Shown here: piece after piece, positions 4,113-29,769 of the stretch | How positions within the stretch are numbered: the stretch's first letter is position 1 | How the letters are laid out: every line of letters begins with the position of its first letter | Translations under genes and position numbers: made by a program | Notes under the pieces: generated by a model | Databases searched by the model: none | The model's input: only the letters and a program-made list of their open reading frames with translations | What the model was told of the DNA's origin: nothing | DNA from: an uncultured virus (IMG/VR IMGVR_UViG_3300044707_000881) | Lineage: Duplodnaviria; Heunggongvirae; Uroviricota; Caudoviricetes | Virus record (IMG/VR): IMGVR_UViG_3300044707_000881 | Reading direction: 5' to 3' (one strand) | DNA length: 64,000 nucleotides

Positions 4113-4507
4113 CCTTCCGGGATAGGCGGGATTTTACTTCCAAAATCTTCATTGCCTTCTATGCTCAAAACCTTAAAAGAAGGCAGCTTATAAACGGCGT
4201 GTGACAGATCTAGATTATTTGGATTTTCCGTGGAATAGACATGTCCCTGAAATCCAGTTGAAACCTCAATCTCTCTGTCCCAAGCACTTAGAGCCATCCT
4301 TTCTACGCCTTTTTTGGCACTTGCTTTTTCCGCAAGGGCTTTTAGCTTGTCTTTTTCGTCACTCGCTGCTTGGTAGCTTTGAACTTTCACAACAGGATTA
4401 ACGCGAAGAAAAGGATCATTATGCTCCGTCTCAACTTCAACGCTTGCCCAAGTTATTCCTTTTTCGCCTATGTCACCAAATGGACACCATTCGAGTTTAA
4501 TTTTCAT
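4100..4507 (-). CDS. Hypothetical protein
   Basis: 135-aa ORF overlapping both neighbours in the same orientation. Confidence 0.6.
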   Translation of the reverse strand: MKIKLEWCPFGDIGEKGITWASVEVETEHNDPFLRVNPVVKVQSYQAASDEKDKLKALAEKASAKKGVERMALSAWDREIEVSTGFQGHVYSTENPNNLDLSHAVYKLPSFKVLSIEGNEDFGSKIPPIPEGCVS

Positions 4508-5540
4508 GTAAAATTGCTCCTAAAACAAAATTAAAATGTTCTGGATCTTGCTTGTAAAAATGAGACATCAGTCCGGGATCGCGGAAACGCTCAACCCCCG
4601 TTGAAATAACCTCGGTAGGAGTGCCAGCATTTCCATATATTTTCCCTACGTAAGGGTCTATAAAATTACCTGGGAATGCCATTTCAGTATCTCTGTAATT
4701 TTCTCCAGTAATGTCTTTTAATTTCATAGGCTTGTCGGATGTAGCCCGATCTTCAATGAATTTTCTTGACGCGACGGCTAACTGGCGATTCTCAAATTCC
4801 ATATAATGCGCGTATTCGTGAAAGACCTGGAGGCGATCAATTTTCTCTTCTAATTGTAATTCTCCGTTTGGATTTGCACTGGCTCTGTCTGCTTCACTTG
4901 TTACTTTGTTTATCTTTTTCGCGCCCTTACCACCTGTTACCGCATAAACATTCACTAAAGCATCAAGAGTTATTTTCTTGTTTTCGCCTGTGAGTCCGCG
5001 AGTATCTACCGAATCAGCCCATAATTCTGCATCTTCTCTATCAATTTTATGATGGGCTGCTATTCTCCGCATCGTTTCTCTTGTGGCTGATTCAAATTCT
5101 TTTTGGGCCAGTAAGGTTTTCTCGTCCAATTCTTTTAAACGTTTTTCATCTCGTTTGTAGAAATCTCCGTTTTTTTTAAACTTGTTCTTTCCCATTATTT
5201 CTAAGAAGGCACTCTTTTTTTCGGACAGAGCATCGTCTAGCGACTTTAGTGCTTTCCCCATAGTTTGATCGGAAAACTCCTTCCCTATGCCAATCAAAGC
5301 TCTGTGATCCGCGGAGTCAGCTTTATATGATGTAGGCGTAGTTTTACCAGGTTTGTCGGTGTCTTTCTTGGTAGTTTTACCAGGTTTGTCGGTGTCTTTC
5401 TCGGTAATTTTACCAGGTTGAGCGGAATCCCCGGTTTTTTTTGATTTCAAGCAATCTTTAAGCTTGGAAATGCAGGAATTCCCGCAAGGTGTACCATTCT
5501 TGCAAATTTTTTCCTTAAAATCGTTTAGTCTTTTGCCCAT
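4497..5540 (-). CDS. Zincin-like metallopeptidase-domain protein with N-terminal Cys motif
   Basis: FHEYAH (HExxH) plus downstream EVISTGVE; N-terminal CKNGTPCGNSCISKLKDC; repeated KDTDKPGKTT linker. Confidence 0.6.
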   Translation of the reverse strand: MGKRLNDFKEKICKNGTPCGNSCISKLKDCLKSKKTGDSAQPGKITEKDTDKPGKTTKKDTDKPGKTTPTSYKADSADHRALIGIGKEFSDQTMGKALKSLDDALSEKKSAFLEIMGKNKFKKNGDFYKRDEKRLKELDEKTLLAQKEFESATRETMRRIAAHHKIDREDAELWADSVDTRGLTGENKKITLDALVNVYAVTGGKGAKKINKVTSEADRASANPNGELQLEEKIDRLQVFHEYAHYMEFENRQLAVASRKFIEDRATSDKPMKLKDITGENYRDTEMAFPGNFIDPYVGKIYGNAGTPTEVISTGVERFRDPGLMSHFYKQDPEHFNFVLGAILHEN

Positions 5541-10063: not shown

Positions 10064-10393
10064 ATGACGGTATTAGTAAAAACCCGCGCGATTCACTACG
10101 AGTTACTGACTGATGAGAGCGAGATTATTGGCGGCGTGTTTGCTGTTAATCACCGCCAATATATCGAGATAGTTGATTTATTTGTAAACAGAGAATTTCA
10201 AAATCAGGGACACGGGCGATCGCTCATGCAGATAATTTTCGACAATCACCCAAACAAAATACTCTGTTTACAATGCGGGGCTTTTAGCAATGGGTTAAGT
10301 CAGGGCAATTTAGCGGAATGGTATAAGCGGCTGGGATTTGTGGAGGGTACGCCATTTCATCAAGGGGATGGATGGATGCACAAACCTATTTAG
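10064..10393 (+). CDS. GNAT N-acetyltransferase
   Basis: LFVNREFQNQGHGRSLM (motif A) and WYKRLGF. Confidence 0.88.
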   Translation: MTVLVKTRAIHYELLTDESEIIGGVFAVNHRQYIEIVDLFVNREFQNQGHGRSLMQIIFDNHPNKILCLQCGAFSNGLSQGNLAEWYKRLGFVEGTPFHQGDGWMHKPI

Positions 10394-11276
10394 CCGTCAT
10401 CCTTGCTGTGATTTCCGGGAACAGATCACACAATTCTTTTAACTGAACCGGAGCATAACGCGCCATCCATTTATAGTAGGTACTACATAGAGTTTCCGGT
10501 GTGCAGTACCACAGAGTCCGAGGAAATGGCTTACCTTTTTTCTGCGGTATTTGGTGCATTGAGTAGATAGGACTAACAGGCGATTCATTCTCAACAAGTA
10601 ACGCCCAAACATCCATATCCAGCCAATCACCCAACGGTAAGGCGCGAACCCACGGCAGTAAATCTTTTTTATCCTGATCATGAAATTGCAGCATTCCAGC
10701 ACGGGCAATTTCAAACTGTCTATCCATACCCTCAGCACCACGCGCACCCCACATATACATTACGTTGGGGGTTCCGTCACCATACAAATGATGAAATTGG
10801 TAGATACTTTCATAACTAATTGACGTGCCAACATCGCCCCAATCCCAAAAGTTTAACCGTTGTCCACCTTCACCCTTCAGACCGTAGGAATTACCCCAAT
10901 CAATATACTTTTTAACTATTAGTGGAAACGGGTCATCAGTTAGATATTCTTCATAATAAAACCCGTTACCAAATGAGTTTATATAATCCTCCCACTCTGG
11001 CAAAACGTCATAATGTTGTGGGAGTTCCGCCCCACAGTCAATAATTAAATTACAATAATCAACCTCTGCCAATTCTAAAATTATCGCAGTTGCCATTGAA
11101 TCTTTACCATACCCAAACCATAGACCCGGTATGACATCCTGATTAACTTTAGGGTTGTCATACCAAGACTGCACACGCTCAATGGTTTTGTTTTTGAGTG
11201 CCTGAAATTCATCAGTTTTCGCCCGTTTCGCTGCTTCCAGATATTTCTTCTGTGGCAGTGCTTTCGATATTTCCAT
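10386..11276 (-). CDS. PAPS-reductase/PP-loop family protein
   Basis: FGYGKDS PP-loop, WGARGAEGMDR, PLGDWLDMDVW. Confidence 0.8.
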   Translation of the reverse strand: MEISKALPQKKYLEAAKRAKTDEFQALKNKTIERVQSWYDNPKVNQDVIPGLWFGYGKDSMATAIILELAEVDYCNLIIDCGAELPQHYDVLPEWEDYINSFGNGFYYEEYLTDDPFPLIVKKYIDWGNSYGLKGEGGQRLNFWDWGDVGTSISYESIYQFHHLYGDGTPNVMYMWGARGAEGMDRQFEIARAGMLQFHDQDKKDLLPWVRALPLGDWLDMDVWALLVENESPVSPIYSMHQIPQKKGKPFPRTLWYCTPETLCSTYYKWMARYAPVQLKELCDLFPEITARMTAK

Positions 11277-12208: not shown

Positions 12209-13139
12209 TTACTGCCACTCCTAATTCAGTAATCATCATGTCTACTATCTTTAGAATTACCTGACTCCGGTATTGTTGAACCATACCATCAGTTGAGATG
12301 CCAACTTGGGGCGCGAGTTGGTCAAGTTTGGATCTAAATGGTGCTAAGTCGGATTTATCGAGAAAGATATAAAACTGTGTTTGTTCGCCCTTTCCGGTGT
12401 AGTTGATACTTTGGACGCTGGCAACATCCGCCACGTTTTCAGTCTCAACTGTGACTTTTTCCGCAGGTGGTGGAGGCGTGTAATCACTTCTACTGGGTGT
12501 TACGTCAATCGTGGTGTTATTGGAATTTTGATCAGAATATTTATCATCATCAAAATCGTAGTTGCCCGTTTCTTCCTGTTCCTCTAACTCTTCGGGTTCT
12601 TCCGTCTTCCGTACCAGAAACGCTTGCATAAACGAGTTAGCAGTGCCAGAATCCCAACCCGCACTTTTTAGCTGCTTCTTAGGCATTTGTGCAAGGATAG
12701 CGGCTATTTTGCCGGGGTCATCACGTCCATCATGGGATGTGTTGTTAAGTCGAAGCAAAGCCGATTTTTGGCTAAGTTCATCGAGTGTTACGGGGACAAT
12801 TGGAATAGTTGCCCAATATTCAGCGCAAAACCGCTCTTGGTGCTTGTGAGAAACTTTGTCCCTCCCTGTACCTTTGATCCACCGCTCCCACTCTTTCAAG
12901 AAAAAGTCTTCATCCTGTTGACTTAGCCAGTCCGCACCCTGAACCCGTCCATGTCCAGAGATGAGATAGCCAAAACTACCGTCTAAATTCCGTTGAATTG
13001 TAGGGTAAATTAACCACCCGAAGTCTAGGAGTGAGTCACGAATCCAAGGCAAATCATTCTCTTCTGAATGTTCGCGGGGATTCTCAGGGTGAAACTTTGC
13101 CAACACGCCGGATGTTGGAAGGCGTAAAACTTCACTCAT
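12162..13139 (-). CDS. ParB-like protein (modification-associated type)
   Basis: HPENPREH...SLLDFGW...LISGHGRVQGA. Confidence 0.8.
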   Translation of the reverse strand: MSEVLRLPTSGVLAKFHPENPREHSEENDLPWIRDSLLDFGWLIYPTIQRNLDGSFGYLISGHGRVQGADWLSQQDEDFFLKEWERWIKGTGRDKVSHKHQERFCAEYWATIPIVPVTLDELSQKSALLRLNNTSHDGRDDPGKIAAILAQMPKKQLKSAGWDSGTANSFMQAFLVRKTEEPEELEEQEETGNYDFDDDKYSDQNSNNTTIDVTPSRSDYTPPPPAEKVTVETENVADVASVQSINYTGKGEQTQFYIFLDKSDLAPFRSKLDQLAPQVGISTDGMVQQYRSQVILKIVDMMITELGVAVNDSAAEPITAENIGF

Positions 13140-14254
13140 TTTTTAACAACCTCTACCGCTTTTTGTGAGTGAATCATTGCTTCATGCAGCGATTTTAACG
13201 CCGCTTCAACATGAGTAGAATCACCACAGGTTTTCATCACCCAGTCAGCAAGCCCGGTAAACTTGCTGGTAACTTGCCATTGTTGTTGTACTATCGTCAT
13301 TCGTTTTCTCGATAGATTTATTGAATCATTGATAACATAATTCTTAGCCCACAGGGAAGCGGTGCTGTGGTCAATTCCTAAATAGGTTTCGCACCAGTAG
13401 GAACTTTTGCCGTTAGCGATCGCATCAATTGCCCTAATCTTCAATTCCTTAGAATAGCCACGCCTCCCAATTGGCGCGGGGTTGTCCCTGAATTGAGTCT
13501 GGCAGGACTTGCACAAATAGCCCTGTTTACCGTCACGTTTACCATTTTTAATAGTTTGATAATCTTTGCAATTTGGACATTGAACCCGCCCAAGTGCCAT
13601 CAACTTTAGTTTTCGTAAAGCGTCAGACTCAATGCGGCGTAACTCCCTCAATTTAATATTGTGAATTTGGCACAGCATTTTGACGGGAATATGGTCAATG
13701 TATAAATCTCGGATAATTGTGGCGTGAAGTTCTGGCAGTTTGTCAAGTAGGGGGAGAATTGAATCTAATTCCTCTTGTTGTTCTGCCGTCAGTTGTTTAG
13801 GCAACTCAGGATTATTCTGATTGCAAGCCATCGCCGCCTCTTTGGCGACTTGCAAGGATATCTCAAGTTCTAAAGCAGCCTGTTCATAAGTTACGCCGTG
13901 CTTTTGGGCGTATCGCTTTAGTTTTTGGTGAGTTTCTTGTAACTGACGCGGGACTTTTACTATCCGCGCTTTATCCCTGACAAATTGCGCCATTGCACCA
14001 TAGATAAAGGGAACAGCGTAACTGGACAGCTTGATTTTCTTGGCAGGGTCAAACCTCTCCACCGCTTTGATCAACCCCTCCGCACCAATTTGTATCAGAT
14101 CTTCTCTTGGGACTGTGCAGCAAGCGGTCATTTTCCCTGCGACATGACCGACCAGTCCCATATTCATCTCAACTATTTTATTTCTCAGTCGGATGTCCCT
14201 GGTTTGGTGAAAATTAATTAAAAGTTGCTGGTTGTCTAAGTATGCCGCGTCCAT
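13136..14254 (-). CDS. SigF/SigJ-like sigma factor fused to IS1 InsA-like Zn-ribbon/HTH
   Basis: EDLIQIG..GLIKAVERFDP..LSSYAVPFI region 2; C-terminal CPNC..IKNGKRDGKQGYLCKSC plus HTH. Confidence 0.85.
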   Translation of the reverse strand: MDAAYLDNQQLLINFHQTRDIRLRNKIVEMNMGLVGHVAGKMTACCTVPREDLIQIGAEGLIKAVERFDPAKKIKLSSYAVPFIYGAMAQFVRDKARIVKVPRQLQETHQKLKRYAQKHGVTYEQAALELEISLQVAKEAAMACNQNNPELPKQLTAEQQEELDSILPLLDKLPELHATIIRDLYIDHIPVKMLCQIHNIKLRELRRIESDALRKLKLMALGRVQCPNCKDYQTIKNGKRDGKQGYLCKSCQTQFRDNPAPIGRRGYSKELKIRAIDAIANGKSSYWCETYLGIDHSTASLWAKNYVINDSINLSRKRMTIVQQQWQVTSKFTGLADWVMKTCGDSTHVEAALKSLHEAMIHSQKAVEVVKK

Positions 14255-15542: not shown

Positions 15543-16397
15543 ATGGTTAATAGTTTAGCTCAAAAAGACTTCATCGTTTACGACAAAGAAGCTCAAAAAT
15601 TTAAGGTAGATCACAGCAGAGAGGGGTTTGTTTATATAATCCGTGCAGTAGGAACGAATAGGATAAAGATTGGTTTTAGCAAAGATCCCGAAAAGCGTTT
15701 AGCATCACTAACGTCGCCTCAAATGCCGTTTGATCTAGAACTCGTTTACAAAGAATGGTTTATAGATGCTTACGCGCTAGAACAGTGTATGCACAAAACA
15801 TTTCATAGGTACAGGGTAAAAGGTGAATGGTTTGAAATCCCCATAGATATAGAAGATTGTGTTGACGATCATGATGGAATAGAGTACAAATTTTGTTCTG
15901 TGTATCAAGATGAGTACGAAAATGAGTTTTGGGGTAACAAAATTTATCACCCATACCCGATTGAAAGTGTGTTAATCAGAATAGGATTAAACGAATTTTT
16001 CGACGATGTAGTTAGACCAGTCGTAACAGAATTTGTAAAATGTTTCGCCACTGCCTGTAATATTGACGACAAACGAGCATGGAACGGATTTGATGCGAAT
16101 TTATCCAGCTTATTACAGGATAAACTGGAATATATTTCTGTCTGTTCAACAGAACCTGACTTTTTAAGCAAAGCAACTAAATGGATGTTTGACGAGTTGA
16201 ACACCGTAGTGTTTTATTCAATTGAGGCTAAATATACGGATCAAGACATGGGCTATGGAAAAGAATCATGGAAGGGGATGGGCGGACTAACCTATCAGAT
16301 GGGCGTTATAGCTGGAGTAATCGAAACCTGCCGCAATGCTATCCAAATCCTCAGAGAACTAGGGGGTGAAATAAAACCTCAACCCACTGTCAACTAA
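15543..16397 (+). CDS. T5orf172/GIY-YIG-like protein
   Basis: GFVYII..KIGFSKDPEKRL..LE..H..F...RVKGEWF. Confidence 0.85.
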   Translation: MVNSLAQKDFIVYDKEAQKFKVDHSREGFVYIIRAVGTNRIKIGFSKDPEKRLASLTSPQMPFDLELVYKEWFIDAYALEQCMHKTFHRYRVKGEWFEIPIDIEDCVDDHDGIEYKFCSVYQDEYENEFWGNKIYHPYPIESVLIRIGLNEFFDDVVRPVVTEFVKCFATACNIDDKRAWNGFDANLSSLLQDKLEYISVCSTEPDFLSKATKWMFDELNTVVFYSIEAKYTDQDMGYGKESWKGMGGLTYQMGVIAGVIETCRNAIQILRELGGEIKPQPTVN

Positions 16398-17755: not shown

Positions 17756-18274
17756 ATGAACAATAATAATTATGGAATGTCTCAAACACGAGACAAATGT
17801 TATGGCGTAGCCGCTTGTCTTACCTATTGGGCTTTCAAGTGCCGTGACAGAAAACGTAGTCCAGCGATGGGTACTAAAACCTGGACTTACTTGGAATCAA
17901 GTATTAGAAACTCTGCTGAAATATCAACTAATTTAGAAGATTATTTGCAGCGACTTTGTGATAAACTTTGTTCACAATTACGCCCAATCGAGTTAACAAA
18001 AATAATTCAGCCAACACAACGGATACTAAGAGTAAATGAAGATGCGACGGAAATCAAGGAACTTCCCGTTGACCAAAATCTTGTATTTATGGGATGGTTG
18101 GATTTAATTGCTGACATTCAACCACACGGATTTACCGAGTGGGATGTACTTGAACTACTGAGAACCAAAGCAGGGATTATTCAAGTAATTTGTAGATTAC
18201 GGTTTGAGGAAGACCGCAGTTTAGGGTTAGATGAACCAGAAGAGTTTATAGAAGTTGAGGTGACAAATGTTTGA
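17756..18274 (+). CDS. Type IV-B small subunit (Cas11-like)
   Basis: Helical 172 aa, first gene of the csf operon, overlaps csf2. Confidence 0.55.
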   Translation: MNNNNYGMSQTRDKCYGVAACLTYWAFKCRDRKRSPAMGTKTWTYLESSIRNSAEISTNLEDYLQRLCDKLCSQLRPIELTKIIQPTQRILRVNEDATEIKELPVDQNLVFMGWLDLIADIQPHGFTEWDVLELLRTKAGIIQVICRLRFEEDRSLGLDEPEEFIEVEVTNV

Positions 18275-19397
18275 TAATTACGATGTTTTTGACCGTGAAA
18301 GATTGACATTGCATTGTGTAATTACGACACAAACGCCACTTTCACATATTGGGGAAGTGTCGGGAAATGTGAGCAATTTAAAAACATTAAAATTACTGGA
18401 TTTTGAAGGTAATCCCAGAAGTGTTTTCACCTATTCTGGAAATGCCTTGAGAAATGGTTTGTTACGGCGTGTAGGTGTAGCTGCGGCGTTAACTGAATTA
18501 GGATTACAGGTAAATCCTGATACACACCATACAATGTTTGCAGGTGGCAGGATTGATGCCGGTACAGCTTCAGATATGGAACTTGATAAAAAGATCCGGG
18601 TTCTAATGCCTTGGTTGTCGGTCTTAGGAACTGCTAAACCTGCTAAAGTGTTTGGTTCTAAAGATGCCCAAATGGTGCAAGGTAGGATTAATGTAGGTTC
18701 TGCTTACTTGGCTTGTTATGAGTCAGCAGAGTACATCTACAATCAGATACCAGCAATATTACCACCGGAAATACAACCCGCTATTCAGAAGCTAATTGAG
18801 GCTAAAAATAAATTATCTTCAGACCCATTCACTCCCACAAAAACTGAAGATTTGGATAATTGGAATCAAGCAAAAAATGACTACTTGCCTTTGATTAGAA
18901 AAGTAATGAAAACATGGTCTGAATATTTAACGGTTGATCAAACTACCCGCAGAGATGCAACTTTAGATCCTAATTTGATTAAATTTCTGCCAACAGAAGT
19001 ACAGGCGCAACTCAAGGGAGATGGTGCAGCTAAAGAGAAAAAATCGGATCAAATGATTGCTTCCGATAGATTAATTATGCCAGGAGCAAAACTATACTCA
19101 AGATGGGATTTGAACTGTACGCAAGTTGAGCAGGGATGGATTTTTGATACTTTATTGAAGTTTGCACAATTCCCGTATTTAGGTGGTAAAGGCAATCGCG
19201 GAAATGGTCGAGTCAGCATGAATTTCTGGTTTAGTTCTGAGTCAGAACGTGGTTTATTGTGGAGTTCTGAAAGTGGTGTAGAGAGCGATAGATTTAACCT
19301 GGCACACGCTAAATATAGAGAATATATCAATCAATATCAACAGTTTTTGAGTGAGGCGAAAACATCAACTGAGTTAAGGAGTTTGTTGGGTGGATAA
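18267..19397 (+). CDS. csf2: Type IV Cas7 RAMP (Csf2)
   Basis: TPLSH...YSGNALRNGLLRR...MFAGG and Gly-rich loop YLGGKGNRGNGRV. Confidence 0.85.
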   Translation: MFDNYDVFDRERLTLHCVITTQTPLSHIGEVSGNVSNLKTLKLLDFEGNPRSVFTYSGNALRNGLLRRVGVAAALTELGLQVNPDTHHTMFAGGRIDAGTASDMELDKKIRVLMPWLSVLGTAKPAKVFGSKDAQMVQGRINVGSAYLACYESAEYIYNQIPAILPPEIQPAIQKLIEAKNKLSSDPFTPTKTEDLDNWNQAKNDYLPLIRKVMKTWSEYLTVDQTTRRDATLDPNLIKFLPTEVQAQLKGDGAAKEKKSDQMIASDRLIMPGAKLYSRWDLNCTQVEQGWIFDTLLKFAQFPYLGGKGNRGNGRVSMNFWFSSESERGLLWSSESGVESDRFNLAHAKYREYINQYQQFLSEAKTSTELRSLLGG

Positions 19398-20079
19398 CTT
19401 AAAAATTACAGCACATTTGGCGACATCTTTGGGTGCTTATGACAACTGGAGTCCATCGCTAGAAGGGATTTTAGTTTATAGGCTTTTAGAACAAAATAAT
19501 CTACTTTCACCTAATCCCACGCCAGATCAAGTAGCAGAAACCAAAGAGTTTATTGAGCAGAATTTACCACTAAAACAAGGTGTCATTAAGTCAGAGAAAT
19601 ATTGGTGCGTGAGTTCACCTTGCTATGTTTTGCAGGGTGAAGCTACAGACAAATATAGAAAACGATGGGATAATCACGAAAACAATTTAGACTGGGGTAA
19701 GCGTAAGCCCAAATTTTTAACAGGTGAAGGGGCGGAAAAATCCTATGATTTACCGCTTTACACAAGGTTAATTAATTCTATTTCTTGGTTTGCTGTAGGC
19801 GATAAAACGGCAATCAAAAATCTTTTGTCGTCTGTTACTCACATTCAGAAAAAGCGTAGTTACGGCAATGGTGAAGTCAGGGAATGGGAAATAGGGGTGA
19901 TTTACGATAATTACCATCTGTGGCGTGATAGTAAATTAATGCGTCCTATCCCTGTTAGATTACTTGATCAAAAAATAGATAATCCTCAGATGGTTTGGGG
20001 GTGGAGAAGTCCCGCTTGGTTAGCGGCAAACAAGGAGTTGTGCTATATGCCAAAGGATAACGTGATTTATGCTAAGTAA
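19390..20079 (+). CDS. csf3: Type IV Cas5 RAMP (Csf3)
   Basis: LKITAHL N-terminus; WFAVGD...THIQKKRSYGNGEVREWEI; MRPIP. Confidence 0.8.
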   Translation: MDNLKITAHLATSLGAYDNWSPSLEGILVYRLLEQNNLLSPNPTPDQVAETKEFIEQNLPLKQGVIKSEKYWCVSSPCYVLQGEATDKYRKRWDNHENNLDWGKRKPKFLTGEGAEKSYDLPLYTRLINSISWFAVGDKTAIKNLLSSVTHIQKKRSYGNGEVREWEIGVIYDNYHLWRDSKLMRPIPVRLLDQKIDNPQMVWGWRSPAWLAANKELCYMPKDNVIYAK

Positions 20080-20815
20080 CGGATCTGGCGTTCAATATCC
20101 CTGGTTAAAAAAGAAAATAACCAGGGCAAAAGACTTAATTAAAACATGGTTAGAGCAATGCGATTATCAGGTTTACGCTAGTGTGTCAGGTGGTAAAGAT
20201 AGCCTAGTGATGTCACATTTGATTAGGCAAGTTTACTCAGATTGTCCATTGGTCTGGGTAAATCAGGGAATGTTTGCTGAATGGGATGATTGCATTGAAT
20301 TATTAGAGTTTTTGAAAACTCAGGGGTGGAATATTATTGAACTTTGTCCAGTGCGTGATTTATGGCATTTGTATCTGGATTATGGCGTTCCCCTTGAAGG
20401 GACGATGGACACAAAAGCCGATAAATTGATAAATCAAAAACTGATTTATGACCCGCTTAATGAATACCAAGAATTGAATAATGTTAAGGGTTATGCGTGG
20501 GGAATACGTAAGCAAGAAAGCAAAAACCGCGCATTTTATCTCAACAAATATGGTGAAGTGCATACGCTCAAAAACGGGTTGATTTGTTGCTCACCCGTGG
20601 CATTTTGGACTACTCAAAATATCTGGGAATATATTGATATGCACTCGTTAAAATACCCTGCTATTTATGATGTTGATAGAATGACAGTTAGGAATGGATG
20701 CCCAATCGGTACAACAGGTGCTAACTGGGGAAGATTAGCAGAGTTAAGAAAGCATTACCCAGATATTTATAATCAATTTGCTACTAAATTTCCACAGGTA
20801 TCAACCTATGTCTAA
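20069..20815 (+). CDS. CysH-like PAPS reductase (type IV-B associated)
   Basis: SVSGGKDS, WGIRKQESKNR, PVAFWTTQNIWEYI. Confidence 0.88.
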   Translation: MLSNGSGVQYPWLKKKITRAKDLIKTWLEQCDYQVYASVSGGKDSLVMSHLIRQVYSDCPLVWVNQGMFAEWDDCIELLEFLKTQGWNIIELCPVRDLWHLYLDYGVPLEGTMDTKADKLINQKLIYDPLNEYQELNNVKGYAWGIRKQESKNRAFYLNKYGEVHTLKNGLICCSPVAFWTTQNIWEYIDMHSLKYPAIYDVDRMTVRNGCPIGTTGANWGRLAELRKHYPDIYNQFATKFPQVSTYV

Positions 20816-21560
20816 TTGCTACCTTTGCGCTAAACCCGGATCTAATGCTTTGGAATTATCCAATACATTCACGATGCACTCGTCAGCTAAATGTCCAGAG
20901 TCTAAAGTGCTATGCGATCGCTGTCACTCTACAATTTCCGGTAATCAAAAGCAGCTTTGGTACTGGAATGAAGGTAAAAATAAATGGTCAAAGCTGTGGG
21001 GACGTTCTTTGTCCAGGGTTTATCAGGGTGATAAGCTAATTGCGCCTGTCGTTGAAGGTGAATATACAGAAGGCAAGGATACTTTTTCAATAGTTAAAAA
21101 CTTGCTGACTAGGGTGGGAATTAGGCAATACTTGTTAAATCCACCTGAACCGCCTTTTACTATAGCCATAGCAGAATCGGGGCAAAAACATATTATCCCT
21201 TGGGCGTTAGAAGGTCAAAACAGAGATTTATTCCCTGTGCAATTTGAACTCGACACTATTTATATTGACAATAGATTTAGAGAATATTTGGAAATTTACG
21301 AACAATTGATGGGATTAGGTTTTAGTAAGTCTGAAATTGATTCTGGAGATTATCGAAGCGATCGCCTAATGAAAGTTTTTGATCAATATGGGGAACTTGA
21401 GGAACGGATAGCGCGTATTAGGGGAACGAGATTAATGCAATTAATTAGCTATGTTGCCCAAGTGCAAGACGCGCCGCCAATTACGGAAGTAGTGCAAATT
21501 CCCGTAATGCCTGTTTCACCAAAAACACTTGAGAAGCCACTGCAATTATCTTTGTTTTAG
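20808..21560 (+). CDS. csf1: Type IV large subunit (Csf1, Cas8-like Zn-finger protein)
   Basis: CYLC...TFT...C...CDRC; LLNPPEPPF...SGQKH; C-terminus QLSLF. Confidence 0.8.
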   Translation: MSNCYLCAKPGSNALELSNTFTMHSSAKCPESKVLCDRCHSTISGNQKQLWYWNEGKNKWSKLWGRSLSRVYQGDKLIAPVVEGEYTEGKDTFSIVKNLLTRVGIRQYLLNPPEPPFTIAIAESGQKHIIPWALEGQNRDLFPVQFELDTIYIDNRFREYLEIYEQLMGLGFSKSEIDSGDYRSDRLMKVFDQYGELEERIARIRGTRLMQLISYVAQVQDAPPITEVVQIPVMPVSPKTLEKPLQLSLF

Positions 21561-25093: not shown

Positions 25094-25780
25094 TTATTCA
25101 AATGAAGCTAACGCCATTTCTACTAATTGATCCGGCGTGGCTTGCGCGTGTAGTTTTGCTTTACGTTCCGCCATGCGTTCAAATAGTTCTATTGATTCCT
25201 GTTCCAGTTGGTTCATGTTATCTCGATTGCACTGGAAATGACGCTTATTAAACAGCCGTTCATTTACCTTGACCGTCCAATCTCGATAATTGTTAGGCGT
25301 GGGAGTTACGCCAAATAAAGCGGTGGAACGGTCGCGTAAAATGTCAGTCCAAAGCTTACGGGCTAATATTCGTTTCATCCGTAATGCCAAAAGCTTATTA
25401 CGTTCTGACTCTTCAACTTGTTTGCCGAACGCTTTATCAAATCGTCTTTCCAGTCCCTCTTCAAGAATGGCATCAACAAAAGCCCTGGCAACCAAGTTAC
25501 CTTGTTTGTCTAATTGCCGTATAAGCTTAGACAGATCGGAAAGTACGATTATGTTGACGGCTTTTGGGTGTAAGTCGCTTTTAACTTTTTGGTGGGATTG
25601 GAAAGCTATGCTACACAAGGATTCTAACTGTTTTATGCTTCTTCCTGATGGGATTAATTTTATGTCGGCTAGTTGGGGAATAGAGGCAACATAACTGCCG
25701 TCGGGCATCATCAAGCCATCAATCTTGGCAAATCCTAAATCAACTGTCGCAACAACAGCTTTTGAGGTATCATTAGACAT
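25094..25780 (-). CDS. Putative phage DNA-binding/antirepressor-like protein
   Basis: VDLGFAKIDGLMMPDGSY N-terminus resembles P63C-type phage regulators. Confidence 0.5.
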   Translation of the reverse strand: MSNDTSKAVVATVDLGFAKIDGLMMPDGSYVASIPQLADIKLIPSGRSIKQLESLCSIAFQSHQKVKSDLHPKAVNIIVLSDLSKLIRQLDKQGNLVARAFVDAILEEGLERRFDKAFGKQVEESERNKLLALRMKRILARKLWTDILRDRSTALFGVTPTPNNYRDWTVKVNERLFNKRHFQCNRDNMNQLEQESIELFERMAERKAKLHAQATPDQLVEMALASFE

Positions 25781-26002
25781 AGTTCACTAAGTGGTTAAGT
25801 AAAGTGGACTAACCATTGAAACCACCGGAATACCGCAAATATTCCTGCGTGGTATGGTTTAAATAATTATATCATGTTTTCAATAGTCTTATTAATTTTT
25901 CAATAACTTAGGATACAATATTATCCAGTCGCGTGATGGTGTTGGTAGCACCGATTCACCACTGGCTGTAGGTCTTGTACACCCACATTGATATTATTCC
26001 CA

Positions 26003-27871
26003 ATGAAAACTATTAAAATCAAGGTCAAACTTCTTGCTGAACAGGCGCAATCATGCGATCGCTACCTAGAAGAATTGACATGGCTATGGAATCAGGTATT
26101 GGCTAATCAATTGCATAACCATTGCATCACCTGGTACAACTGGGCTGGTAAGTTGAGCGCAGATTTAGCTAAGGCGACGGAAAAGTTAGAGAAGCTAAAA
26201 CCGGAACAACAGCAGCTTGTTAGGAACTACTACCGCAGCAAAGACAAGCCAAAACTCAACAAAAAAGAACAGGAATTAGTTGCCAAATTTGATATATTTT
26301 CCCGGTGGTTGCCGTTTGACTTAGAAAATATTATTCCCGTACCTTTGCGAGTTGGCAACAGTGGCTACGAGGGCTTATCGTGCCAGATTGCTACAGGCGG
26401 AAGTTACTGGAAACGGGACGATAATTTTAATATTCCCATTAAAACCAAAAAGGGGATTATTCACGTCAAAGGGTCTAAATTAGTTAAGGGTGATTACCCC
26501 TGGAAACGGATAGAGATAATCCCCCACAAATACAAAACTTTCCCCAGTGGTAAGTTTGAGGGGAGGGAATTAATAGATTTAATGAAGTTTGATAATTTGA
26601 ACGGGTTAAACGGGTTAAGAGCGATGCAAAACCTACCAGACTTAACCGTTTCATCTCACTACGTCGGAGGCTTGTTAGGGTTTTTCAAACAGTCATGGTT
26701 AGCATTTTTAGACCCCAAAAGGATAAACAGCAGGAAGCCAAAATTCAAAAAAGATGCTGATAAGATTAGCACTTTATTTAATAAGCAATGTCCACCAAAT
26801 AAGATAGACATAAAGAATAATTCAGTTGAAATTACTGGATTTGGCAATTTAATCGTTACTGATAGAAGTTGGGGGGAAAGACTGAACCTAGATAGCAGTC
26901 TTCCTCGGGCGTATATGCTAACCAAAAAAGCATCTGGCTACTATATCAATATTGTCCTTGCTCACCCATTGCAAGAAGAAAAAGCGGTTTTAACAAAGAA
27001 ATTACCCAAGGTTAAAAAGGAGCTTGGAGAAGACAGCCAAGAGTACGAAAATATTAAGTCTAAAATCAAGTTTATTGAACAGCAAATCAAGGATTCGTTA
27101 ATCGTAGTGGGAAAGAATTTAAGCGTAGGGATTGACCCTGGAGTACAGGCTATTGTGGCGACAGATCACGGGGCGTTATTCCTCCCAAATCTAAGCAGGG
27201 AAAGAGTGTCAATCCATATAGAGGAACTACAATCAAGGCTTGATAACCTTGAATTAATTAATGATAAAAAGTGGAAAGATTCAGGAAGCAAAGGTGCTAG
27301 ACCTAAGACAAAAAACGAGATTAAGATACAAGATAAAATTACCAGATTACATGAACGTGGGGCTAATTCTTCTAATGCCTTTAATCATAAAATGTCAACT
27401 AGATTAAGCAGGACTTACGAGCATATAGCATGGGAGGATACCCAGTTAACCAATCTCCTAAAACAAACAGAAGCTAAAGCATTGCCTGAAGGGGTGGGAT
27501 ATGCTCACAACGGCGCGTCTGCTAAACGGGGTTTAAATTGGATTATGAGACAAAGATGCTTGGGTGATTTAAAAGCTAAAACTAAGCAAAAAGTTGAGAA
27601 CAGAGGCGGTAGTTTTCATGAACCACCTGCTAACTACAGTTCTCAACTATGCCATTGTTGTCATCAGAAAGGTGAGCGATTATCACAGTATGAGTTTGTC
27701 TGCAAAAACTCTGAATGTGAGTTATTTGAACAGGTGCAACAAGCTGACACCAATGCGGCTAGGAATCACAAACATAATAGTAGTTTTGAACTAGGAGAAG
27801 TCAAATATCACAACACTAGATTGGTTTACCAAAAACCCAAGAGATTTAAAAAGAAACGCTTGACAAAGTAG
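26003..27871 (+). CDS. TnpB-derived compact type V (Cas12-like) RNA-guided nuclease
   Basis: MKTIKIK..L TnpB-like N-terminus; RuvC-I VGIDPG, RuvC-II IAWED, Zn finger CHCC..C...C, RuvC-III ADTNAARN; adjacent array. Confidence 0.88.
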   Translation: MKTIKIKVKLLAEQAQSCDRYLEELTWLWNQVLANQLHNHCITWYNWAGKLSADLAKATEKLEKLKPEQQQLVRNYYRSKDKPKLNKKEQELVAKFDIFSRWLPFDLENIIPVPLRVGNSGYEGLSCQIATGGSYWKRDDNFNIPIKTKKGIIHVKGSKLVKGDYPWKRIEIIPHKYKTFPSGKFEGRELIDLMKFDNLNGLNGLRAMQNLPDLTVSSHYVGGLLGFFKQSWLAFLDPKRINSRKPKFKKDADKISTLFNKQCPPNKIDIKNNSVEITGFGNLIVTDRSWGERLNLDSSLPRAYMLTKKASGYYINIVLAHPLQEEKAVLTKKLPKVKKELGEDSQEYENIKSKIKFIEQQIKDSLIVVGKNLSVGIDPGVQAIVATDHGALFLPNLSRERVSIHIEELQSRLDNLELINDKKWKDSGSKGARPKTKNEIKIQDKITRLHERGANSSNAFNHKMSTRLSRTYEHIAWEDTQLTNLLKQTEAKALPEGVGYAHNGASAKRGLNWIMRQRCLGDLKAKTKQKVENRGGSFHEPPANYSSQLCHCCHQKGERLSQYEFVCKNSECELFEQVQQADTNAARNHKHNSSFELGEVKYHNTRLVYQKPKRFKKKRLTK

Positions 27872-27888
27872 ATGGTTTTAGTTATTAT
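27860..27888 (+). promoter_or_regulatory. Promoter for tracrRNA-like RNA
   Basis: TTGACA-17-TATTAT overlapping the effector stop codon. Confidence 0.7.
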
Positions 27889-27894
27889 CAATTT

Positions 27895-28040
27895 ACCGCA
27901 GTTTGGACGGGATGACTGGTTCTGTCAGTCTATGACTTGATGATTTTACGATCAAAAAGTAAGGGAGATGGTGACTACTCCCATAGACCAGCCGGAACTA
28001 TGGCTGGCAATCCTCAGAAGGGATTAATCATTTTGCAATC
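27895..28040 (+). ncRNA. tracrRNA-like RNA
   Basis: Three hairpins followed by an anti-repeat at 28008-28038 complementary to the CRISPR repeat. Confidence 0.75.
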
Positions 28041-28165
28041 ATCGAAGCGGCGTGGCTAAAACAAACCCGCGCGCAAATCCAGAACCTAGACAAGCGAAGG
28101 GATTAGAGCTATCTTTGCAGAATATCAAAAGGGATTTAAGCGGCTGCAATGGACTTTTTGGATTC

Positions 28166-29082
28166 CTTGCAGGATGACTAATCCCTTCTGAGGGATTGAA
28201 ACAATGATACTGGTAACACGTTCTCTTGGTTGTTTACCTTGCAGGATGACTAATCCCTTCTGAGGGATTGAAACCAGCCTGGAGAGGGAATTTCAGCAAG
28301 AATTAGAACTTGCAGGATGACTAATCCCTTCTGAGGGATTGAAACTCCTTGCCAGAAATTAAGGAACAGTGCGAGATGATGACTAGCTTGCAGGATGACT
28401 AATCCCTTCTGAGGGATTGAAACTATCAGAATATTGATTAATAGATGTAGTGTAATGTGCTTGCAGGATGACTAATCCCTTCTGAGGGATTGAAACGACA
28501 GTATCCTTCATTGTGCTATTGGAAATAATGAGCTTGCAGGATGACTAATCCCTTCTGAGGGATTGAAACTAACCATTTGTTCTAGCAGTTGGTTTTCTGC
28601 TATGTTCTTGCAGGATGACTAATCCCTTCTGAGGGATTGAAACAACTTCCAAGAGGGCGCGGAGGTCAAGTCCAAACTTGCACTTGCAGGATGACTAATC
28701 CCTTCTGAGGGATTGAAACCACCAAAGGCAAGAATTAGCACAAGAATTTGTACCTTGCAGGATGACTAATCCCTTCTGAGGGATTGAAACTGTTTCCCGT
28801 CTCCCAGTTTGGCGAGTGCATCGGAATTGCTTGCAGGATGACTAATCCCTTCTGAGGGATTGAAACAGATCCTTTTGTGGGATTGATAGCAGCCCGTTGT
28901 ACTTGCAGGATGACTAATCCCTTCTGAGGGATTGAAACTTGACTTAATTCTATTCCCCCAAAAGATGACATTACTTGCAGGATGACTAATCCCTTCTGAG
29001 GGATTGAAACGCGCTAATTCTTTCACTGCAAATACTCCTATTGATCTTGCAGGATGACTAATCCCTTCTGAGGGATTGAAAC
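28166..29082 (+). CRISPR. CRISPR array: 13 identical 37-bp repeats, 12 spacers of 34-41 bp
   Basis: Repeat CTTGCAGGATGACTAATCCCTTCTGAGGGATTGAAAC at 28166, 28238, 28309, 28387, 28460, 28533, 28607, 28683, 28754, 28830, 28902, 28974, 29046. Confidence 0.99.
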
Positions 29083-29286
29083 TTGGATTGGTACGGACAT
29101 GACGACTACATAGTGCCAATCAACCCAGAATTTAAAGCAAGCGAATTGAATTATCAAGTTGCCGTAAAGCGTGGTGAAGTAAAACCATTTCCAATTGAGT
29201 AAAGTTATTTGGAATTTTACCTCAATTCCATCAATAGTTTGTCCGTTATATTTGCCTTTGGGAAGTTTATTTTTGAGTTGGTTCAC
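29038..29286 (-). CDS. Hypothetical protein whose 3' end runs through the last CRISPR repeat
   Basis: C-terminal VSIPQKGLVILQ is the repeat read on the minus strand. Confidence 0.4.
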   Translation of the reverse strand: MNQLKNKLPKGKYNGQTIDGIEVKFQITLLNWKWFYFTTLYGNLIIQFACFKFWVDWHYVVVMSVPIQVSIPQKGLVILQDQ

Positions 29287-29442
29287 GGTTTTTAATAATT
29301 GTATTAATCTATAACATTATACATACTTAAGATCAAAAAAAAGCCCCTGATTTCTCAGAGGCTAATTTCTAAAATGGCAGAAAATCGTATAAATTTCTTT
29401 TACCAGATAGACTTTCTCTACCACTTAAATTCCTCCAAAAGA

Positions 29443-29661
29443 TTAATCTTCATCAGCTTCATAGTCAGGGCGATCGCCAGTGAGTAGCTGAAATATTTCT
29501 TCAGCCGCGCAAAGAATTGATTTTTCTGTTGGATGCTGGGAATTAAAAAAATAGCCCGGATTTTGCCGTTTTGCATACCCTAGATACCCGTAGATGATCC
29601 AACAAAGGTCTTCAATAAACTCTTTTTGATTGCAGTCAAATGATGTGTCGATCTTCATCAT
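29443..29661 (-). CDS. Hypothetical protein
   Basis: 72-aa ORF. Confidence 0.55.
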   Translation of the reverse strand: MMKIDTSFDCNQKEFIEDLCWIIYGYLGYAKRQNPGYFFNSQHPTEKSILCAAEEIFQLLTGDRPDYEADED

Positions 29662-29769
29662 GCTATTTGCTCTTTTGAATTAAATAAAACTTCTCCAACA
29701 AATCCTTTCTGTCTTTGATCGTTTGCGCGATCGCTCAAATATTTTAACTAAAGCGATCGTGCTAACTAA

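Follow-up and report, generated by a model that had tools for sequence, protein, structure and literature searches.

A probable type V-P CRISPR-Cas12p unit on an uncultured tailed phage of filamentous cyanobacteria and its natural setting

A 64,000-nucleotide stretch of DNA from an uncultured virus (IMG/VR record IMGVR_UViG_3300044707_000881; this whole stretch is hereafter called the window) very probably carries a complete type V-P CRISPR unit together with the nuclease Cas12p, borne by an uncultured tailed phage with filamentous cyanobacteria (Nostocales) as hosts. The locus comprises the gene cas12p, a trans-activating CRISPR RNA (tracrRNA) and a repeat-spacer array and, judged from its sequence, is genuine and apparently functional. 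The family, its RNA, its protospacer-adjacent motif (PAM), its structure and its dependence on thioredoxin are already in print, and the locus is nothing new as a CRISPR system. What appears to be new here is only its natural setting, that is, the host, the plasmid targets and a link to type I-D systems. The features of the locus are as follows.

26003-27871 (+): cas12p, 622 amino acids (aa), Cas12p/'Cas12 hacker' family, type V-P
27860-27888 (+): predicted tracrRNA promoter, TTGACA, 17 nt, TATTAT; a consensus match that overlaps the end of cas12p
27895-28080 (+): predicted tracrRNA, 5' end placed by the promoter and the start of conservation, 3' end uncertain
28007-28039 (+): anti-repeat, pairs with repeat positions 1-34
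28087-28115 (+): possible array promoter, TAGACA, 17 nt, TATCTT; a weak call (9/12) from promoter likeness
28166-29082 (+): CRISPR array, 13 repeats of 37 nt, all identical, with 12 spacers (34-41 nt) between them

The window protein is a member of the published Cas12p family

Cas12p ('Cas12 hacker', type V-P) was described in a preprint by Wang et al. (bioRxiv 10.1101/2025.01.20.633832; PDB 9JFS and 9JG3). The portions of the preprint cited here and below cover a tracrRNA, a PAM, cleavage assays and a cryo-electron microscopy structure. They report a phage-borne family of 500-700 aa with 12 metagenomic proteins, 11 of which are mutually more than 70% identical, and the authors named it as a separate subtype, V-P. 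In the same portions the hosts of Cas12p are said to 'remain to be determined', and no natural targets are named.

In the window, cas12p lies within an open reading frame (ORF) at 25988-27871 (+), and the ATG at 26003 is the start that is conserved across 20 homologues. A preliminary description, made by a model from the letters of this DNA, had noted a protein of ~622 aa with three acidic RuvC residues and a zinc finger. Both are in place: the RuvC triad is intact (D378 in VGIDPGV, E478 in IAWEDTQ and D582 in QQADTNA), the zinc-finger cysteines C550, C553, C567 and C572 are present (CxxC...CxxxxC), and none of the RuvC and zinc-finger columns varies across an alignment of 20 family members. 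With the window protein alone as the query, phmmer matched PDB 9jfs_A at 1139.7 bits, while a profile built from the 20 homologues matched PDB 9jfs ('Cas12p') at E 5.8e-286 and likewise matched 9jg3. The solved chain corresponds to P0045, a protein encoded on a viral contig (L169), residues 1-613 of which are identical to residues 129-741 of 9jfs chain A; the residue numbering of the preprint fits P0045 as well. Between the window protein and P0045, 495 of 622 residues are identical (80%), with zero gaps and at an equal length of 622 aa.

The likeness to this protein, Cas12 hacker-1, is not limited to the RuvC triad, the zinc finger and the length. Both loci have all 14 thioredoxin-contact residues, a tracrRNA core starting with ACCGCAGUUUGG, a 37-nt repeat ending in AAAC, natural GTN PAMs, a phage as carrier and no adaptation genes. 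They differ in one residue out of five and in the central part of the repeat and in the anti-repeat, which co-vary. By homology to this 80%-identical protein, cleavage of double-stranded DNA guided by CRISPR RNA (crRNA) is to be expected of the window protein. Two observations weigh against this assignment. Only three of the four PAM-contact residues are kept (D197, Q262 and K332), and the fourth, N261, is a lysine in the window protein. The sole signal from an RNA library (run X20) is a 213-nt contig on 26019-26231, in the 5' part of cas12p, which is no demonstration of transcription and does not reach the tracrRNA or the array.

The preliminary description had proposed an independent and undescribed transition from TnpB to Cas12, which would make the locus a new type V subtype. 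In keeping with this proposal, the protein as a whole is not claimed by any curated model of Pfam or NCBIfam: in Pfam, the TNB domain alone passes, and the best NCBIfam model, C2c8 (NF038192, type V-U2), remains below its cut-off (185.6 bits against 350, E 1.8e-54). However, the protein is 80% identical to a solved Cas12p at full length and without gaps, and its tracrRNA core, pseudoknot motif, repeat length and PAM are all those of Cas12p. The claim of novelty fails because the protein falls inside a Cas12 subtype that is already described, the finding that the preliminary description itself had set against novelty, and we regard a new subtype as refuted. The 'expanded N-terminal region' that had been put forward holds residues 44-172, the region that Wang et al. 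assign to the REC and thioredoxin-binding (TB) domains.

A further possibility is that the locus is a plain member of type V-U2 (C2c8), like that of cyanophage vB_AphaS-CL131, which was described in 2018 as a 'putative type V-U2' system, with no tracrRNA reported in the portion of that paper cited here (PMC6293099). C2c8 is the best NCBIfam model for the window protein and Cas12u2 the best PADLOC model (E 2.1e-56). CL131 and other phage contigs carry relatives of 441-466 aa with arrays (466 aa in CL131), and the CL131 system has in common with the window a small, cyanophage-borne type V effector beside an array, a related RuvC half and the lack of adaptation genes. However, the C2c8 match spans only residues 376-561, the RuvC half of the window protein, and the cut-off of 350 bits that the window protein misses is passed by CL131 gp061 (450.8), L184 (486.5) and L189 (455.6). 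The solved Cas12p (194.2 bits), the protein of the Cylindrospermopsis phage (172.4) and that of L182 (132.2) score below it as well. Identity to the CL131 protein is 28% over 64% of the protein, the repeats of the short proteins belong to another family and end with ...TTGGCAAG or ...TTGCAAG on the gene strand, and Wang et al. class Cas12p separately, as V-P. Taken by the C2c8 cut-off, Cas12p is the nearest neighbour of V-U2 and not a member of it, and V-U2 membership of the window locus is improbable.

A Cas12k-like guide module for RNA-directed transposition, or else a mobile IS200/IS605 TnpB, has to be considered. With Cas12k, the window locus shares the GTN PAM, 37-nt repeats with type I-D-like ends (TTGAAA-), the placement of the tracrRNA between gene and array, the cyanobacterial setting and the lack of adaptation genes, and the layout of the PI domain is common to Cas12k and Cas12p (Wang et al.). 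With TnpB (IS200/IS605, omega RNA), it shares the RuvC and TNB core. In contrast, the RuvC triad of the window protein is intact, while the RuvC site of Cas12k is inactive. The characterised homologue cleaves DNA according to the preprint portions cited. Cas12k works with Tn7-like genes (Hsieh and Peters, bioRxiv 10.1101/2021.02.06.429022, in the part cited here), and TnsB, TnsC, TniQ and TnpA were all absent among 88 window ORFs. No Tn7-like genes or transposon ends were seen around the homologues examined. Unlike TnpB, the window system takes its guide from an array plus a separate tracrRNA, it has no tnpA, and its protein is ~200 aa longer with REC and TB additions; the guided_TnpB model gave the window protein 84.3 bits, below its cut-off of 100. 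We regard a transposition module or a mobile TnpB as hardly conceivable. In setting the protein apart from ordinary TnpB and from Cas12k, the preliminary description was right: tnpA is missing and arrays lie beside homologues down to 37% identity, and RuvC is intact without Tn7 genes.

The lack of adaptation and transposition genes that had been noted for the window also holds. Pfam found no Cas1, Cas2, Cas4, TnpA or Tn7 genes among the 66 window ORFs of at least 100 aa, nor in 22 more ORFs of 60-99 aa, and PADLOC found none of the same five kinds in 48 ORFs. In the scans for homologues, 2 of 80 loci from metagenomes were relevant, the rest being mostly generic TnpBs, and 3 of 80 loci from genomes.

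A tracrRNA is predicted between gene and array

The tracrRNA had been proposed to lie within 27860-28165, and a promoter, an invariant block and an anti-repeat are located there. The promoter matches 11 of 12 consensus positions and ranks first among the 13 promoter-like sites of 25700-29500. Transcription would be expected to start ~6-7 nt past 27888, which is where the invariant block begins: ACCGCAGTTTGG starts at 27895 and is invariant in eight loci with proteins 37-100% identical to that of the window. In the published RNA, the terminal AAAC of the repeat forms a pseudoknot with G7-U10 of the tracrRNA (Wang et al.). With 27895 taken as +1, GUUU occupies positions 7-10 (27901-27904), the same as G7-U10 of the solved RNA. 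The 3' end was placed by the length of the published tracrRNA, which is 185 nt (in the single-guide RNA design) and goes with a repeat of 37 nt (Wang et al.). Of the 30 pairs in a consensus fold of the tracrRNA core, 17 show compensatory changes. A search of 25500-29700 with Rfam at permissive thresholds gave a single chance-level match, outside the locus. At the possible array promoter, a block CCAGAACC-AGACA is kept by six of the eight loci in the alignment.

The duplex between anti-repeat and repeat is predicted by RNAduplex at -44.5 kcal/mol, as compared to -27.5 for the intergenic reverse complement. In three loci (L005, L009 and L011) the repeats differ and the anti-repeats follow, with -34.0, -36.3 and -40.0 kcal/mol, respectively, versus -25.8 to -26.6 for the controls. 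The anti-repeat co-varies with the repeat and therefore ties the array to Cas12p.

The array lies beside cas12p across the family

As had been described, a perfect array of 13 repeats follows the gene within ~300 bp: it begins 294 nt past the cas12p stop codon. The repeat, CTTGCAGGATGACTAATCCCTTCTGAGGGATTGAAAC, occurs in 13 copies with zero variation at a spacing of 71-78 nt and ends with AAAC. In the published crRNA, the 3' end of the repeat is followed by the guide (Wang et al.). Because of this layout and the strand of the anti-repeat, we read the array on the plus strand, and each guide therefore follows ...ATTGAAAC.

We surveyed 21 other records with a homologue at least 37% identical, some of which may be one phage sampled twice. 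An array lies within ~0.6 kb of the homologue in 16 of them (L177, L173, L174, L178, L175, L169, L170, L171, L172, L180, L182, L089, L009, L011, L228 and L010); in L010 it is upstream of the gene and inverted. Two contigs stop just past the gene (L176 and L090), and in the remaining three records (L001, Cylindrospermopsis raciborskii virus RM-2018a; L179; L181) no array was found within the available DNA.

These last three records form a clade at 45% identity. Here, two tracrRNA-like scaffolds occur per genome, each behind a strong promoter-like site (e.g. TTGACA, 17 nt, TATAAT); scaffold positions are 2798 and 3371 in L001, 5003 in L179, and 5443, 4779(-) and 90(-) in L181. The scaffolds begin with ACCGCAGTTCGG, which has GTTC where Cas12p has GTTT, and then run to TTGAAC/GGAAC-type ends. 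From their sequence, they may be RNAs in which scaffold and guide are fused, as in omega RNA.

The phage of Cas12 hacker-1 has a second, larger array (up to 28 repeats) directly after its Cas12p array (L169 7430-9428, L170 7430-8336 and L089 6930-8854). In reverse complement, the repeat of this second array is the one that accompanies short V-U2 (C2c8) proteins on other phage contigs (L184-L188), and the arrangement points to two kinds of type V array placed tail to tail.

A type IV-B-like module without an array lies upstream

Not mentioned in the preliminary description, a type IV-B-like cas module without an array occupies 17756-21560 (+), 4.4 kb upstream of cas12p.

17756-18274 (+): Cas11-like (PADLOC E 1.7e-6)
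18267-19397 (+): Cas7/Csf2 (E 2e-36)
19390-20079 (+): Cas5/Csf3 (E 1.8e-41)
20069-20815 (+): PAPS-reductase/CysH-like (Pfam E 5.5e-16)
20778-21560 (+): Cas8/Csf1 (E 8.2e-23)

The array might serve this module, or class 1 effectors of the host, instead of or besides Cas12p. Its repeats are type I-D-like, with a Cas6-type hairpin and the ATTGAAAC tag, and host arrays have this repeat family, one of them by a type I-D operon with Cas6. The type IV genes for Cas7, Cas5, Cas8 and Cas11 are close by, and a Csf2 homologue was present in all six related phage records with a Cas12p at least 77% identical. However, the anti-repeat tracks the repeat from locus to locus, and the array lies 0.3-0.5 kb from cas12p in every context examined. 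The complete phage genome G399/L182, which has direct terminal repeats, carries Cas12p and a 10-repeat array without Csf2. No Csf2 homologue was found either in the Cylindrospermopsis phage (CrV), in CL131 or in G400 (a V-U2 phage), and no Cas6 was found in the window by Pfam or PADLOC. A use of the array by class 1 or type IV-B effectors is unlikely, and we continue to assign it to Cas12p.

As to the PAPS-reductase-like protein of the module, the window contains a second gene of this kind at 10386-11276 (-), which is a weak match (E 3.7e-4).

The thioredoxin-binding surface is conserved

Wang et al. report a near-complete reliance of Cas12p on the host thioredoxin (TrxA), which is bound at the TB domain. 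In the window protein, the residues of the thioredoxin interface are kept 14/14 (W44, Y45, W47, L51, W102, F105, L107, I110, I111, V113, L115, C127, I129 and I172), as are the basic TB.b residues (7/7). Co-folding with thioredoxin 1 of Nostoc sp. PCC 7120 (THIO1_NOSS1) scored 0.81 (0.78, 0.81 and 0.81) versus 0.01 for the best of three controls, although a similar complex has already been solved and the score may reflect that. This passes the mark of the tool, which 116 of 157 solved complexes and 2 of 215 mismatched pairs also reached. Between the runs, at least 97% of the contacts agree, with a per-residue confidence (pLDDT) of the partner of at least 88. The modelled interface covers the published pocket and places C127 against the thioredoxin active-site residues 32-35. 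As a prediction, the co-fold shows likeness to the solved complex, not binding.

The carrier is a tailed phage with a highly likely Nostocales host

By Pfam, the window is phage DNA, with genes for a large terminase, for tail proteins of the L, J and M-like kinds, for a tape-measure protein bearing a lysozyme domain, for an ERF recombinase and for a sigma factor. The terminase is at most 28.5% identical to those of isolates and has no close cultured relative, so that no named phage genus can be assigned. None of 50,697 phage records matched the whole locus in blastn. Related Cas12p loci occur on IMG/VR viral contigs, two of which have direct terminal repeats.

A Nostocales, i.e. filamentous cyanobacterial, host is highly likely. 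The window contains 29 HIP1 octamers (GCGATCGC), compared to 0.4 predicted from base composition, and the homologues come by name from Anabaena sp. WFMT, Sphaerospermopsis, a Nostocaceae metagenome-assembled genome and Scytonema. The locus is present in 19 sequencing runs of lake or freshwater DNA, which belong to at least 15 studies.

Among the other genes of the window, the sigma-70-type factor (13136-14254, -; Pfam Sigma70_r2, E 3.8e-12) has a C-terminal zinc ribbon, and a T5orf172/MUG113 (GIY-YIG-like) protein with weak PD-Lambda-1 similarity is encoded at 15543-16397 (+).

Spacers match pANA03-like plasmids next to GTN

Two spacers of the window array match named or available genome sequences.

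28720-28753 (+): spacer 8, 33/34 to a hypothetical-protein gene of the Anabaena sp. 90 plasmid pANA03, with GTT on the 5' side
28791-28829 (+): spacer 9, 30/39 with GTC, ~4 kb from the spacer-8 target on a Nostocaceae contig (G013:C1)

The match of spacer 8 to pANA03 has an E value of 4e-5 in 7.3 Gb of plasmids (blastn), with GTT on the guide-identical strand. The same site recurs in three Nostocaceae genomes, where the matches of 33/34 and 32/34 follow GTT and that of 31/34 follows GTC. In addition, contigs without arrays from phage-bearing lakes match spacers 4, 10 and 11, each after GTT; the lake-contig matches come from four sequencing runs. The published PAM is GTN in the order GTA > GTG > GTT > GTC, with cutting of double-stranded DNA and trans activity (Wang et al.).

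For a tally across the family, we used 143 spacers (128 unique) from 12 arrays, namely 11 loci and the window, with the L180 array left out. They were compared to pANA03 and two related elements, and matches had to cover at least 75% of the full spacer length; eight weaker rows (up to 22/35) were discarded as chance. Nine distinct spacers match the pANA03-like elements, and eight of these are preceded by GTN. As GTN makes up 5.4% of the trinucleotides in the targets (0.054), this gives P = 6.6e-10. When the L177 array was searched against plasmids, only pANA03 and pANACY.03 were added; those of L173 and L009 yielded no more than a single weak match. Searched against phages with E up to 10, the window array gave nine records, all at the chance level of E = 4.

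Plasmid pANA03 (20 kb) has genes for ParG, for a helicase-like DUF3987 protein, for a helicase of the UvrD type and for an integrase (tyrosine recombinase). Six of its proteins gave no match to the window in tblastn, and the target gene thus has no homologue in the phage. In the papers searched, pANA03 is not mentioned.

Several points weigh against pANA03-like elements as targets. Only 2 of the 12 window spacers (8 and 9) have a match in named or available genomes, and diverged spacer-8 sites are preceded by ATT (pANACY.03, 30/34) or CTA and not by GTN. In two lake runs the spacer-8 matches follow AAT or AAA, and the spacer-7 match in lake runs follows ATC. Among the nine tallied spacers, one (L171_s1) has ATG, and the 75% threshold was picked after the hits had been seen. 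Finally, Pfam, PADLOC and PHROGs revealed no recognisable defence system on pANA03; PADLOC gave only a UvrD/GajB-like helicase. Altogether, the probable targets of the array are small plasmids or mobile elements that resemble pANA03, belong to Anabaena/Dolichospermum and occur in the lakes of the phage. The use against competing elements that had been suggested from the sequence fits these matches to Anabaena plasmids.

A related case is Vibrio phage ICP1, in which a CRISPR-Cas system of type I-F reportedly acts against the PLE island of the host (said to have been described by Seed et al. in 2013) and reportedly comes with its own adaptation genes. Both phages thus carry a CRISPR system with spacers that match a host-borne mobile element. 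They differ in that the ICP1 system is of class 1 and is said to have adaptation genes, whereas that of the window is a single-protein type V system without them.

One spacer of the family matches cas12p itself. Spacer 2 of the L171 array (3 repeats; 5398-5433) is identical to the gene in L180 (36/36), matches the gene on its own contig at 35/36 (4128-4163), and matches the window gene at 30/34 (27027-27060); the match is preceded by TTG, not GTN. This could be a self-match without cleavage, or a spacer directed against the cas12p of rival phages.

Arrays turn over and resemble host type I-D arrays

The arrays turn over despite phage records without cas1, cas2 and cas4, none of which was found in any phage record examined. 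With L177, which has a 100% identical protein and 20 repeats, the window shares 11 of 12 spacers, the twelfth differing by at least one letter; with L173, the protein of which is 99% identical, it shares only one spacer. A lake contig joins 28237 to 29046 and represents an array deletion variant that lacks repeats 2-12.

Among 389 Nostocaceae genomes, 117 match the window array, mostly via look-alike 37-nt repeats of the hosts. These are built as xTTGCAA...TAATCCCT-loop-AGGGATTGAAAC, the same as the repeat of the window. One such look-alike array (G373) adjoins a complete type I-D operon with Cas1d (E 2e-133), Cas4, Cas6, Csc1, Csc2, Cas10d and Cas3'. A fourth look-alike array examined belongs to another Cas12p locus. 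According to the cited part of an earlier study, the Cas4 of type I-D systems picks out GTN PAMs, and GTN also allows interference by type I-D (PMC5896167). For Cas12k, Hsieh and Peters proposed that the arrays are filled by I-D adaptation, and the part of their preprint cited here also reports near-identical spacers across V-K, III, I-D and V-U2 arrays.

The leaders show a similar relation. In five Cas12p loci, the ~60 nt before the first repeat can be aligned with the leader that belongs to the host I-D array. Six of the eight loci aligned (L175, L172, L171, L009, L011 and L182) have this ~60-nt segment, placed after a conserved AAGCGGCTG block and ahead of the first repeat. Furthermore, one spacer of a host array with at least 42 repeats of the type GTTTCAGTCCCCTTACGGGGATTACTTAGTTAGAAAC (L206, G081:C57:97825-100861) agrees with spacer 6 of the window (28570-28606) at 30/37. 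The match starts at the same boundary, while the orientation of the repeat may be opposite. It may reflect a shared target or an exchange of repeat-spacer units.

We therefore considered that spacers enter either in trans via the host type I-D Cas1-Cas2-Cas4 or by recombination with such arrays. Entry by host I-D adaptation is suggested because the phage has no adaptation genes and because type I-D shares the repeat family, a similar leader and the GTN PAM. Other observations stand against it. The window and L177 arrays differ by internal blocks and not by additions at one end, and two further host arrays with repeats of this kind lack cas genes within 15 kb. The leader comparison covered a single host I-D leader, and the ~60-nt segment is missing in the window (28141-28165), in L173 and in L169, the Cas12 hacker-1 contig. 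Since the window lacks an I-D-like leader, leader-directed acquisition is less likely in this particular array. In sum, the chances for and against an entry by one of these two host-dependent routes appear about even.

Discussion

Our analysis places a Cas12p unit on a phage of filamentous cyanobacteria, and its mode of action is taken by homology from the characterised member of the family. The tracrRNA would be transcribed from its own promoter at ~27895 and would pair with the repeats of the pre-crRNA via the long anti-repeat and a 4-bp pseudoknot (GUUU with the terminal AAAC). Host thioredoxin would hold Cas12p in an active form at the TB domain. The repeat-derived handle and the guide would then direct Cas12p to DNA beside a 5'-GTN PAM, where the RuvC site is expected to cut both strands.

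Beyond this, we tentatively propose that the phage array lives off the type I-D machinery of the host, as the repeat family, the leader of sister phages and the GTN PAM may indicate. Cas1-Cas2-Cas4 of the host could then supply it with spacers that are usable at once, and these would be turned on pANA03-like plasmids or mobile elements of the same host and lakes. The metagenomic target variants without a GTN might accordingly be escapes from the PAM in a conflict between phage and plasmid; we consider this combined scenario possible but somewhat less probable than not. A bolder extension would be that the same crRNAs, cut by the Cas6 of the host, also arm the array-less type IV-B module of the phage.

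These findings place Cas12p in phages of bloom-forming Nostocales and provide, with pANA03-family plasmids, the first candidate natural targets of Cas12p, found next to the experimentally defined PAM. They also tie Cas12p arrays to the repeat, leader and PAM of host type I-D systems. If true, this would explain how the array of a phage that lacks adaptation genes continues to change, and it would offer a testable case of a phage CRISPR system directed against a plasmid of its host.

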